Source of the DNA: Octopus vulgaris
Lineage: Eukaryota
Direction of reading: 5' to 3'
Assembly: GCA_951406725.2 (NCBI GenBank)
Contig: OX597836.1
Span: forward strand, 2,852,001-2,916,000
DNA: 64,000 nucleotides
Shown: one piece after another, positions 4,628-63,925 of the stretch
Numbering within the stretch: the first letter of the stretch is position 1
Layout of the letters: every line of letters begins with the position of its first letter
Position numbers and translations under genes: made by a program
Notes under the pieces: generated by a model
What the model saw: the letters and a program-made list of their open reading frames with translations, nothing else
The model's database searches: none
Told to the model about the DNA's origin: nothing

Positions 4628-4659
<32 letters not shown>

Positions 4660-4782
4660 TTCTTTAAACTCTGTTTATCGAAGAGCGGGTTTCGAAACGT
4701 GGAACACCCTTTCATTTTTCCTAAGATTTAATTTAAAATTTTACATCTACCTATTATTATCCCACTTAACTCTCTCTTTCGT
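4628..4782 (+). repeat. Left arm of a ~150-bp inverted repeat containing a decayed H2-like hammerhead (4673-4705)
   Basis: Reverse complement of 5416-5568, including the flanking (CT)n(TA)n. Contains gaagagcgggtttcgaaacgtggaac. Confidence 0.85.
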
Positions 4783-4795
4783 TTGGTCTACATTT

Positions 4796-4834
<39 letters not shown>

Positions 4835-5350: not shown

Positions 5351-5406
<56 letters not shown>

Positions 5407-5415
5407 CATATATAT

Positions 5416-5568
5416 ACGAAAGACAGAGTTAAGTGGGATAATAATAGGTAGATGTAAAATTTTAAATTAAAGCTCAGGAAAAAAAGAAAGGGCGTTCCAC
5501 GTATCGAAACCCGCTCTTCGATAAACAGAGTTTAAAGAAATATATATATATATATAGAGAGAGAGAGA
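5416..5568 (-). repeat. Right arm of the ~150-bp inverted repeat (decayed hammerhead 5494-5526)
   Basis: Reverse complement of 4628-4782 with a few substitutions and indels. Confidence 0.85.
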
Positions 5569-5932
5569 AAGAGAGATAGATAGATAGATAGATAGATGCA
5601 TAGATAGACAGATAGATAGATACATTTGAGACAGACTTAAGGTTTGGCTGCAGCACCTTGCAAGAGAATAAGTTCTCAGCTTTTGGTTTAGAATAGAGAA
5701 CCGCAGGTTTTGCATGTCCAACAAGATTCCAACTCAGGAAATAGTATCAGACTCTATGGAACGTATAAGAAAAGAACTGTGGACACGTTTAACTGAAAAA
5801 TTAAAAACGTATAACATCTGACAAAAGAATAATATGTACAGAACGAATACACAGAAAAAGAAATGTTGGAACTCATATAAAAGCCTTGCAACCATACACA
5901 AATACACATGTGCACGCATATATACATATATG

Positions 5933-6051: not shown

Positions 6052-6092
<41 letters not shown>

Positions 6093-6093
6093 T

Positions 6094-6456
6094 AATAATA
6101 AATATTAGGGAATAAATCCAAATTTACAGGGAAAAAATCATTTTTAGGATTAAATCCAATTTTATAGTAAAATATTATAAAATATTATTAGAGACAAAAC
6201 CACTATTTTGCAAAACAAACAAAGAAAGACTTAATCAATACATAAAATTTTAATAAATAGTCAAAAAACCGCCACTACAATTGTTTCTTGTCTTGATCGA
6301 CAATCTTCAGGTGGACTTCCAATAAGTCAGTTTCAAATTATGTCGATCAAGACAAGAAACAATTGTAGTGGCTTTTTTGACTATTTATTAAAATTTTATG
6401 TATTGATTAAGTCTTTCTTTGTTTGTTTTGCAAAATAGTGGTTTTGTCTCTAATAA

Positions 6457-6459
<3 letters not shown>
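6094..6459 (-). mobile_element. Fold-back (palindromic) hammerhead element, family H1; putative PLE pLTR plus inverted pLTR
   Basis: Arms ~6185-6303 and 6341-6456 are reverse complements. The left arm has ~90 extra bp. Flanked by (TA)n on both sides; homologous to 58927-59376. Confidence 0.85.
6272..6314 (-). ncRNA. Minimal type-I hammerhead ribozyme, family H1
   Basis: Minus strand reads CCAC CTGAAGA TTGTC gatcaa GACAA GAAAC aatt GTA GTGG: perfect core, stems I and II, palindromic stem III ACAATTGT, GUA site. Confidence 0.9.
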
Positions 6460-6520
<61 letters not shown>

Positions 6521-58560: not shown

Positions 58561-58804
58561 ATTAAAACTTTATATTCTTTTATTCATTTATTTGTTTCAG
58601 CCATTTGACTGCAGCCATGCTGGAGAACCGCATTCAGTCGAACAAATCGACACCAGGAATTATTTTTTGTAAGCCTAGTACTTATTGTATCGGGTGTTTT
58701 GCTGAACCGCTGAGTTATGTGGACGTAAGCACGCCAACATCGGTTGTCAAACGATGGTGGCAGGACAAACACAGACACACAAACATATACAAACACATCT
58801 ATAT

Positions 58805-58836
<32 letters not shown>

Positions 58837-58855
58837 ATATATGTATATATATAAA

Positions 58856-58941
<86 letters not shown>

Positions 58942-59120
58942 AATAAACATTAGGGAATAAAACCAAAATTACAGGGAAAAAAATCAGATTTAGGATGAAA
59001 TCCAATTTTATAGTAAAATATTATATAATATTAATTCGAGACAAAACCACTATTTTGCAAATCAAACAAGGAAAGACTTAATCAATACATAAAAAATTTT
59101 AATATAAAGTAAATAAATCG

Positions 59121-59164
59121 CCACTACAATTGTTTCATGTCTTCAAATGACATTCATCAGGTGG
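59121..59164 (-). ncRNA. Minimal type-I hammerhead ribozyme, H1 (minus copy)
   Basis: CCAC CTGATGA ATGTC atttgaa GACAT GAAAC aatt GTA GTGG. Confidence 0.9.
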
Positions 59165-59239
59165 ATTTCCGATCATCTAGTCAGTTTTAATTTATGAATT
59201 AAAACTTCATAAATTAAAACTGACTAGAAGATCGGAAAT

Positions 59240-59283
59240 CCACCTGATGAATGTCATTTGAAGACATGAAACAATTGTAGTGG
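59240..59283 (+). ncRNA. Minimal type-I hammerhead ribozyme, H1 (plus copy)
   Basis: Same motif on the plus strand; predicted cleavage after GUA at 59279. Confidence 0.9.
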
Positions 59284-59369
59284 CGATTTATTTACTTTAT
59301 ATTAAAATTTTTTATGTATTGATTAAGTCTTTCCTTGTTTGATTTGCAAAATAGTGGTTTTGTCTCGAA

Positions 59370-59434
<65 letters not shown>

Positions 59435-60385
59435 GAAGGGATTCTTTCACACACCGTCGACCAAATCCACTCACAAAGCATTGGTCGGCCCGAGGGTATA
59501 GTAGAAAACACTTGCCCAAGGTGCCACACCGTGGGACTGAACCCGCAACCATATGCAGTGAGATTGATTCAGCAATCGTGTGTGCTAGAAGCAAAGTTCT
59601 TTTCATGCATCTACTGCTGCGCCTGCACTTCATACTTTCCACCATCGTAACTCTTCAAACATTGTACAGCTAAACCGAAAACTCTTGTACACTCGAAAAA
59701 AAACCCTACTTGTTATATTGTAGAACCGTACATCATTAACCCCAATATATTCGCATCGCTGAAAGCGCAGCTGAGACGACTTTTATATGAGCACAAACAC
59801 ATGAGACACAATGTATCCGGGATTACATGCTATGTTTTTTTTAATAATAATAATAATGTTTGTGTATGCAAATGGTTACTGCTTGCATTATTCGGTGCGA
59901 AGATTAGATGAATTTAGATTTATTTTATTTTATTAACTTCTGTATCTAGTAAATAAATAGTAATTGGAACTTAAATTCAAAGTATGCTTTAATCCCCTAG
60001 CTTTATCAACCGTAGGAGTACTCCCTATGTACACACAACATGTGGAAAACTGTTTATATTGCATATGTGAGATGCACTGATCGGAATATGATACAGTTTA
60101 CGAATGCCTCGCGGACTTGCTGCGTTAACAACTGTACTACGTCGCAGATATAGCATGTATTTAAAAAGACTTACTTCCTCCTTTGATAAGACGGATACAG
60201 CTTTCAAATCGGAGTAACATATCTCATGTAAATTGAAATTCATTATAAATATTAATCTTACTTTCAAAGGTATTTTGCTTCCAAATCCATATAAGGGATT
60301 AATTTCTTTTATCTCTGTTTTAGGATACTGAGCTCTGTGCACCGTCTATAATACATAATCATGTATAGAAAGACACATTAAGGAT

Positions 60386-61459: not shown

Positions 61460-61990
61460 TATAAATTTGCTAGCGATATTCGCTCTACAGACTGGTCTTG
61501 TTGGTGATCCTGCTGCAGGGTCTTTGGTTACTTTATGATCGTTGCGAAGTCCATACAGTGCCGGAATATCATTGTTCAAGGCTTGGAAATTGTTAGCTGT
61601 GCGTTCTTGGGTCCCAAAACAATTGTCCACATCATCTTGTGGGCGTTGAGAACCTTTTCTCTCTCCTCATGCGCCTGTAAAGTTGTTACTTTCGTTTTGG
61701 CGATAGGATGTTGCATTGCTTGGATCTAGTTCGGTAAGCTGTCTATTGACATCCTGTCGGACATATCTGTGAAAAGGCTACCACCTCTCCGTTCCTCGTG
61801 CGCTGAATGAGCTTACGTAAGCCACATGCAGGTTTAATCCCAAGTTTTTGGGCCTCTGTCTTATTCTGTCTCTGTCTCTTAGTGTATAGTTCTAAAATCT
61901 GTCTAAGTCTGGTCCTAGCTATAGTGAACTGTGCTTCGATAGTATGTCTTGGAATGCAGACCCTTATGTTAAAGGGTAATGTTGTCGGGT
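61460..61990 (-). pseudogene. Penelope-like element ORF fragment: N-terminal domain and RT motifs 1-2
   Basis: Frameshifted minus strand: NKTEAQKLGI...RKLIQRTRNGEVVAF/TDMSDRMSID (cf. DKG/TDKSG motif)...DIPALYGLRNDHK (61532-61567; cf. P-x-LYGL-x-K-x-HK)...GSPTRPVC (cf. P-x-RPIV). Confidence 0.8.
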
Positions 61991-62402
61991 AAATCCGGCT
62001 CATGTTGTAAGATTTGTTAGATATGTTGAGGAATTGAGTGTCAAATATAAACAAAACTGAAAACATAATAAAATAAAAATACACAGATAAATAAACAAAT
62101 CGAAGTAAATAACTATATACATTAAAATCTTTTTTATTATTATTATTATACATACATACATAAATAAGTGGGTGTAAACACATGAGCAAAATAAGAATAA
62201 ACAAACAAAAACAAATTACACGAACGTATATAAAGAGGAGATACAAATATTACAGGCATTTCCCCCCAAAACACACACTAACTAAACATAGGCGCACATA
62301 GAGATATACGCATGCGCAAATGAAGACACGTACAATAGAAATACAAAATGCCTGACGATTAGTAAGGAGAGACACACAAATAAGAAAGAAGAAAGCAAAG
62401 GA

Positions 62403-62442
62403 CCACTGATGAGGTCACAGGAGTGTTACGAAAGAACTCTGG
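62403..62442 (+). ncRNA. Minimal hammerhead motif, family H6
   Basis: CCA CTGATGA GgtCAC agga GTGttaC GAAAG aa CTC TGG: perfect core, stem I CCA/TGG, CUC site. Confidence 0.72.
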
Positions 62443-63549
62443 CGGAAATAAGATTAAGATTAATGTAAAAACTAAATAACGCTGAAGCAAAGTAACACCA
62501 AATATATAGTGCGTGTGTTTTTATTGGCTAAACTGGCAAAATGACCATTCCTAAATACAAGAATAACTGGTTTATTGCTTGCATCTAAGCTTTTTTAAAA
62601 TTCCATTTAACCAAATGGTTCCACTTCATCCCATTTCGTTGTTTCATTGCACCTGCTTAGACAAAGACAATGAATGTGTGGAGAGCGTCCGTTTGTCATA
62701 CACTGGCAAGCATATTGTTATTTCAAGCGATCTATCACACAGCAGAAAGAAACACTTTTTCCATAATGTTAAGTATTTGTAGCGATGGCAGCGAAAGTCG
62801 GACATTTCAAATTGTTCTTTTTATGACTGTTAGCTAACCATCCGGTCATATTAGTTTATCTGTTTCTTTCTTCGTTAATTTCTTTGTCTTTGGTGTATTT
62901 CTTTTTTCTTCTTTTTGTATTCGTTCTCTTTTCCTCATTTTTTAAACATTTCAGTTTATCATAGTCACCAGGGAAACCAAAACAAAAAAAAAAATGATAA
63001 AAGAAAAACAAAAAAAAAACACTAATAACTCATGAAATTCATTAACTTCTTTATATATTATACAGAAATGTTACTAATTTTTCTAAGAGGGAAAAATTAC
63101 GCACAAATACAATAAACGTTAATCAATAACTAAAACGGAACAAAAATATCGGTATTAATTATAATTTTTCTCTCTTCCAATTTTCTAAATACTTTTTTTT
63201 TTCAGCATTGCGTTAATTCTTCGAAAAAATCTTATTTATTTATTCATCCATTCAGTTATTTATTCATTTATTTAGTAAGTTAGTTACGTGACTGGTGGAT
63301 TGGAAGCAGAAACTCAAAAATATCTGAAACTAGTTTCAATATAGTTTTGAAGACTCTCTAACAATGAATAAGGATGTTTCCTTTGCACACCGTCTGTCTT
63401 TATTCATTAAGAAGATACAGCGTCATGGCTGTAAATATACAGAAATACGATATAAATAAACATACACACACACACACAAACATATGCGTGTATATGTGAT
63501 CAGTGATTCTCACTTCGTTAGTGTATAGTCGAGATATTAGATGTTTGAG

Positions 63550-63584: not shown

Positions 63585-63702
63585 GTCATCAACGTGACCG
63601 ACCAGGCTATCAGATGTTGCTACACATCGCTGGTCACAATGCACTTCGCATTGTTTTAGCCTTCAAATGACGCCACCCCTCTGGCTAAGTGAGCAGGCCA
63701 AT
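63585..63702 (+). mobile_element. Short GC-balanced island in (TA)n, probable retroelement 3' tail
   Basis: Non-repetitive 120-bp insert between (TA)n tracts. The assignment is from recall of octopus repeats only. Confidence 0.3.
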
Positions 63703-63726
63703 ATATATTTATATATACATATATAT

Positions 63727-63925
63727 AGGGAGAGTTTACGAAAAAAACAAAAGACAAAGACAGGTGGTGTACAAAACAAACAGATGTATTAGTATAATGC
63801 TCAGGAATAGAAAAAGTATTTTACGTTTCGAGCCTACGCTCTTCTACAGAAAGGGACACAGAGAAAAAGAAGGAGAGAAACAAGGAGAGAAAAAAGAGAG
63901 AAAGAAGGAGAGAAAAATATGAGTC
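63727..63925 (-). mobile_element. H2 repeat
   Basis: Near-identical to the reverse complement of 28500-28668; ends ctccc-(TA)n. Confidence 0.8.
63818..63853 (-). ncRNA. Minimal hammerhead motif, H2 (A6U)
   Basis: CTTT CTGTAGA A GAGC gtag GCTC GAAAC GTA AAAT. Confidence 0.7.

Follow-up and report, generated by a model that had tools for sequence, protein, structure and literature searches.

A young hammerhead-bearing fold-back in the TA tract of an octopus SINE, probably a Penelope-like integration product

Several described systems resemble the repeat analysed here. The layout of Penelope-like elements (PLEs) is given in PMC8557442 as an inverted, 5'-truncated copy at the 5' end with a tail at one end only, the origin of the inverted copies and tails being named there as an open question; the same paper reports a microsatellite bias for Neptune and, in the form of (TA)n, for Naiad. 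Head-to-head palindromic junctions have been described in PMC3846280, and published PLE tails measure 30-40 nt. A PLE of the anole nicks and extends both strands, is a predicted dimer and uses uncleaved RNA as template, starting in vitro at two internal positions of the RNA, one at either end of the tail (PMC11167929). PLE hammerheads carry a small palindromic helix III and have been seen in pairs on opposite strands, with 100-700 bp between the two (PMC4209133).

In a 64,000-nt stretch of the Octopus vulgaris genome (the window hereafter), we analysed a fold-back of ~450 bases at 59 kb, belonging to a family that we term H1. We regard it, at a probability of about 0.88 that refers to PLE origin and not to the mode of priming, as the single recent integration product of an EN+ PLE, or else of a short non-autonomous RNA that such an element mobilised. 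Like the EN+ PLEs with hammerheads (Penelope/Poseidon, Neptune, Nematis), H1 joins an inverted truncated copy head-to-head with a tailed copy, carries its hammerhead in the pLTR and has a microsatellite bias; unlike them, the H1 copy is without an ORF, and tails in the H1 layout are 70-100 nt vs. 30-40. Neptune is the likeliest clade of H1 among these. PAc (Poseidon of Anolis carolinensis, PMC11167929) shares with H1 two fixed 3' ends bounding the tail, an AT-rich target and an uncleaved RNA template, but the PAc ORF starts at stem II and its start sites are AC-rich, whereas the three frames of H1 contain stops and both of its ends are AT-only. The inverted pLTRs of Pen2/Pen2a in Adineta vaga (PMC3846280) are similar in their head-to-head palindromic junction, pLTR of ~200 bp and optional tail, but these elements keep the ORF and make target duplications of 8-10 bp, none being readable at H1 inside (TA)n. 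Naiad PLEs share (TA)n targets, inverted copies and a tail, but, according to PMC8557442, are without the canonical hammerhead and are old remnants in cephalopods, in contrast to H1, which has the motif and is young. Finally, the non-LTR retrozymes (PMC7229834; bioRxiv 10.64898/2026.07.22.740005) are, like H1, short, non-coding, PLE-related and endowed with a type I hammerhead; they form head-to-tail tandem arrays, whereas the window holds no tandem H1 copy.

A search by title and abstract (octopus, Penelope and hammerhead together) yielded no published description of the family, although Repbase, Dfam or the supplements of PMC13282606 may already contain it. This last paper, a 2026 repeat annotation of O. 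vulgaris, lists 31 recently active PLE families, with 0 occurrences of 'ribozyme' in the part of its text available. The H1 layout is one already described for PLEs, and its departures from print are the tails of 70-100 nt and a hint of a common inner end.

Anatomy of the fold-back and its host SINE

58575-58785, minus strand: 3' half of the host SINE, which reads right to left; aligned to copies at 8.7, 29.9 and 18.7 kb at 76-82%
58786-58927: left microsatellite, the enlarged internal tract of the SINE; CA-rich with (TATC)n at first, followed by a run of pure (TA)n of 68 nt (58860-58927)
58930-59027, minus strand: tail of ~98 nt, on the long arm only, with the same end in the 6.1-kb copy
59028-59198, minus strand: long inverted-repeat arm, a pLTR-like end with its sense on the minus strand
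59121-59164, minus strand: type I hammerhead motif with palindromic helix III from the strict scan, predicted cut at 59125
59183-59206, plus strand: 10-bp mini-hairpin at the junction containing the 7-nt loop (59199-59205), the footprint of a template switch
59206-59376, plus strand: short arm, the inverted copy without a tail; its AT-only terminal patch merges into (TA)n
59240-59283, plus strand: type I hammerhead motif from the strict scan, predicted cut after 59279
59373-59433: right tract of pure (TA)n, 61 nt
59433-59630, minus strand: 5' half of the host SINE; decayed head with a 27-nt insertion, and a B-box-like motif near 59533-59544, its identity as a box being our assumption

The two arms, each of 171 nt, are 99% complementary with 7 nt between them, and the single mismatch that a preliminary description had counted lies at 59175 (170/171 identical). 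In the sense orientation, each outer end is a 3' end attached to (TA)n, and the 5' ends of the two arms face each other at the centre. The asymmetry claimed for the tail was borne out, the left arm being longer by ~98 nt and ending in a (TAT)n patch that merges into (TA)n, with no such tail on the right arm. One mismatch in 171 amounts to ~0.3% per arm; on the octopus scale, on which JC 0.09 equals 25 My (PMC13282606), the insertion would be about 1 My old with a wide range (under 5 My), assuming that this scale applies and that no arm-to-arm conversion took place. The element may thus be called young, as had been proposed. The A at 59175 is absent from the depth of all four DNA runs that we compared, and represents either a private change or an assembly error. 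Neither this base nor the exact junction was present among the best 32 of ~4500 contig pieces, which covered the flanks only in part (share 0.44-0.66).

The repeat on either side of H1, which we take to be a tRNA-derived octopus SINE with A- and B-box motifs, had been described as the two halves of a single insertion. The halves are collinear with all three intact copies in the window and meet at the internal CA/TA tract of these copies; identity to the copies at 8.7, 29.9 and 18.7 kb is 82/81/76% for the left half and 85/84/72% for the right, while the two youngest copies are 92/92% identical to each other over the left and right halves. Being collinear and similarly diverged from the intact copies, the halves behave as one older insertion, as claimed, and not as separate insertions. 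No target duplication of the SINE was readable, and ARAGORN returned 0 tRNAs. The decayed head at 59555-59630, with its 27-nt insertion, may be a second, older head. A further assertion, that the TA/CA tract pre-dated the insertion, is supported with a qualification: intact copies carry TA in their internal tract, up to 23 nt pure, which indicates that the microsatellite was present before H1, but the pure TA flanks of H1 (68 and 61 nt) are longer than the tracts of the three intact copies, so that some of their length may have grown with or after the insertion.

The inner junction bears the marks of a template switch, as the preliminary description had surmised from its loop. The 7-nt loop is the reverse complement of 59184-59190 and lies inside a perfect 10-bp mini-hairpin (59183-59192 with 59197-59206, 4-nt loop), for which P = 5e-4 when all 4^7 loops are weighted by the composition of the arms. 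On the plus strand the junction reads as a snap-back with a 2-nt primer and on the minus strand as a slip of 15 nt, likewise with a 2-nt primer; both readings amount to templated synthesis at a nascent end. Contigs with loose ends at 59190 agree with the window up to 59198 and then differ from the loop (best 24 of 169 loose-end rows), and this departure argues that the loop is not parental. One 1009-nt contig, found in the runs X1 and X2, leaves the stretch at 59190 and continues upstream of the inner end of H1; in its first 30 letters a TA run lies ~23 nt before an initiator-like motif, an arrangement that may represent a promoter such as rotifer pLTRs have, or just a flanking microsatellite.

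These features also bear on a fold-back of another making, i.e. two independent insertions into the same TA tract that were later fused by deletion, or an artefact of assembly. H1 is abundant and favours (TA)n, the exact junction occurs in no contig among the matches listed and 59175 A in 0 runs, all of which would suit such an event; however, the arms are 170/171 identical vs. ~9% divergence between family members, no TA lies between them, the flanks are not mirrored, with the other SINE half resuming beyond H1, and the same layout recurs at 6.1 kb. We consider fusion or artefact very improbable.

The hammerhead motifs

A strict scan identified three hammerhead cores in the window (plus strand 59240-59283, minus strand 59121-59164, and 6272-6314), vs. 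0 in each of 30 Markov resamples. Each arm at 59 kb combines a helix I of 4 bp and a helix II of 5 bp with a palindromic helix III that terminates in a GUA site. From the 59-kb to the 6-kb copy, the closing pair of helix II switches from A-U to U-A without loss of pairing. Judged by its sequence, the motif belongs with the dimer-dependent hammerheads that PMC4209133 reports from PLEs. The arms had been said to hold perfect hammerheads. An intact type I core is indeed present in both, but "perfect" is too strong a word, since the 10.1-11.1 pair is A-U and not the usual G-C, helix I has just 4 contiguous bp, and the Rfam hammerhead models gave no match to a single H1 arm at E<=10 (four chance matches were to other models). 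The usual bulged base is likewise absent, and the minimum-energy fold of the isolated hammerhead was not better than that of shuffles (z 0.24).

In both read-through transcripts the antisense arm precedes the ribozyme, and folding yields a hairpin of about -275 kcal/mol in which the probability of helices I and II is 0.0; the ribozymes are therefore predicted to be masked in read-through RNA. Lying on opposite strands, the two hammerheads are unable to form a dimer in cis. Cleavage after 59279 is not expected from this locus, given that the ribozyme would be buried in the long hairpin and that the copies lie on opposite strands, and an RNA-end test directed at 59279, as had been proposed, is poorly aimed. 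In the long arm, stops interrupt each of the three sense frames, and the copy holds no ORF; with its ribozymes masked as well, the 59-kb copy is most likely inert.

Other H1 copies and their target sites

Two further H1 copies were recognized in the window:

6092-6461: second H1 fold-back with the same two outer ends, an asymmetric inner junction with a 2-nt overlap, flanked by (TA)n
41246-41274, minus strand: stub of 29 nt found by family match, holding only the outer end of a short arm, inside (TA)n

The long arm at 6.1 kb is 91% identical to that at 59 kb over aligned columns (family divergence ~9%), the short arm begins inside helix II with the 2-nt overlap, and the tail is ~90 nt, such that the long end extends ~90-98 nt beyond the short end in both fold-backs, 2-3 times the published tail length. 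The 6-kb arms differ from each other by one 2-nt indel only, which suggests that two H1 subfamilies were recently active. An extra 70-100 bp on one arm had been noted at 6.1 and 41.4 kb; the extra lengths are there (~90 nt and ~69 nt), but the 41.4-kb fold-back is of a different family. This second family (41360-41553) also lies in (TA)n and has an H1-like layout with 62-nt arms and a ~69-nt tail, gives no BLAST match to H1, and in its hammerhead-like core has lost the 5' strand of helix I at a near-symmetric junction.

A near-perfect inverted repeat without an ORF in a TA-rich target would also suit a DNA transposon of the MITE type, bearing long terminal inverted repeats and inserting at TA. 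In contrast to what such an element predicts, the termini are unequal by ~98 nt, the inner junction is different in 3/3 cases seen (two from the window and one from X2), the stub has one end only, and the arms contain a covarying hammerhead. Both long copies have both outer ends in common with different interiors, and these common ends, together with the variable junction and the 41.2-kb stub, argue against an element of fixed terminal repeats, the structure which would have overturned the earlier interpretation. The MITE explanation is largely refuted and highly unlikely.

Targeting of (TA)n, as proposed earlier, is consistent with all sites in the window: 3/3 adjoin pure (TA)n, vs. a background of 8.9% of window positions that lie within or close to such a tract (~7e-4 if independent). 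Among the contigs of the DNA runs, 15 from X1 and 16 from X7 have a loose end at 59022 that passes into (TA)n (best 24 of 169 loose-end rows). The tracts adjoining H1 have a median length of 52 nt vs. 29.5 (p=0.014), with a length-weighted expectation of 42.

H1 is abundant in the four DNA runs, which bear three organism labels: contig records on 58928-59236 number 1170, 408, 1218 and 1708, and those with at least 99% identity number 108-256 per run, summed contig depth not being equal to copy number. One X2 contig is a further fold-back with another junction. Being the only joint among the matches listed in the four runs (an X7 contig that crosses the centre with just 12 nt on the far side was left out of the count), it does not establish that fold-backs are common genome-wide. 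One arm stops within ~3 nt of the same place in 3/3 junctions seen. Contig depth passes the ribozyme cut without a step (ratio 0.83-0.88). A depth fall toward 59198 was considered as gradual 5' truncation and rejected, the same shape at the fixed tail end marking it as an edge effect, and a 20-fold drop near 59080-59095 was left unused as confounded by subfamily divergence. Direct partial-tandem, pLTR-forming copies of H1 were absent from the window, where copies are inverted or single.

Penelope-like origin and mode of priming

H1 combines a hammerhead with palindromic helix III, an inverted, truncated head-to-head copy with variable junction, and a tail at one end in 2/2 fold-backs, all of them PLE features. 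The preliminary description had likewise read the locus as the PLE pattern of an inverted tail-less copy head-to-head with a tailed one, the ORF reduced to nothing, and every test that could be run agreed with it. Membership rests on RNA motif and architecture, as no RT or GIY-YIG ORF linked to H1 was found: 100 of the 217 filtered ORFs of the window gave 0 Pfam matches. Pattern scans for H1 gave 0 matches in viral contigs, metagenome contigs and bacterial/archaeal genomes.

We postulate the following series of events. A PLE protein would nick (TA)n on both strands inside the old SINE, and each nicked end would prime reverse transcription on uncleaved element RNA, one start being distal and producing the tail, the other proximal, ~98 nt upstream; the two start sites consist of A and U only, and pairing with TA primers would be possible there. 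The two cDNAs would each stop ~35 nt 5' of the hammerhead, a nascent end would fold or slip back and thereby add the 7-nt loop, and the two cDNA ends would be joined via an overlap of 1-2 nt to leave a palindrome, head-to-head and with a tail on one side. That the template was uncleaved is suggested by the 73 nt retained 5' of the cut in both arms and by the absence of a depth step there. Given a PLE origin, we lean slightly toward this two-strand priming followed by end joining, since its activities have been shown in vitro and it accounts for the solo stub. It does require both cDNAs to have stopped at the same base at 59 kb, where folding back of one cDNA is the simpler explanation.

In that competing explanation, also of PLE origin, there is a single cDNA, begun at the end with the tail; its 3' end folds back two times, first as the 10-bp mini-hairpin and then along the long arm, and the cDNA copies itself, the short arm being ended by endonuclease cleavage or by a switch to the target at the pLTR/tail border. 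Several observations speak for it: 1) the arms end at the same base at 59 kb and within a few bases at 41.4 kb; 2) they have minority alleles in common, e.g. 59037 C at ~22% of X1 depth; 3) the geometry of the mini-hairpin is correct; 4) identical arms and a symmetric junction are explained more simply; 5) self-priming has been proposed in PMC3846280 and EN resolution of the tail in PMC8557442. However, the 41.2-kb stub has the proximal end without a long arm to copy, both tail ends are RT start sites in vitro (PMC11167929), and other AT-only patches of the arm went unused as ends in 2/2 fold-backs. We regard self-copying of one cDNA as a possibility of real but lesser weight, and sequence alone cannot separate it from two-strand priming.

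More speculatively, and with rather low odds, H1 may be a ~270-nt non-autonomous hammerhead RNA of which the fold-back is the normal product: a dimeric PLE would prime both strands on one RNA at two sites ~98 nt apart, synthesis of both cDNAs would finish by run-off where the RNA has its fixed 5' end, ~35 nt ahead of the ribozyme, and the templated loop would be left by end joining. Such a fixed 5' end is hinted at by the common stop of one arm in the three junctions. If this proposal were true, the many young copies would be a natural record from which the origin of PLE inversions and tails could be decided, and (TA)n tracts might become longer with each insertion.

Although the 59-kb locus is probably inert repeat DNA, it has value as a clean example, in that its nesting in the internal tract of a SINE indicates that the microsatellite came first and its junction preserves a readable footprint of a template switch. 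An abundant, young, long-tailed family allows a genome-wide count that would separate models of PLE inversion and tail formation. Such fold-backs are easily mis-annotated as MITEs or as microRNA hairpins; among the best 150 of 371 Rfam rows, nothing but sub-threshold hairpin-type miRNA matches appeared at H1.

Other repeats of the window were also recorded. A third short family has five single-arm copies (430-585, 28504-28693, 41607-41775, 46635-46802 and 63701-63888), mostly beside TA runs, with a variant hammerhead-like core, of which the 63.8-kb copy alone passes a relaxed scan (null mean 0.2 per window). At 62400-62450 a hammerhead-like motif seen by eye passes neither scan, and a nearby minus-strand frame of 168 aa (61743-62249) has no Pfam match. 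A low-complexity palindrome of ~170 nt (54065-54232, 85% complementary) has a short unique core per arm, with no hammerhead found. SINE copies lie in close inverted pairs at 30213-30571 and 30687-30909. An old inverted duplication of 1.3 kb (37547-38805 and 39115-40368) is 78% identical, and an inverted pair of ~200 nt (4628-4831 and 5362-5571), 90% identical and with TA-run edges, encloses another short repeat.
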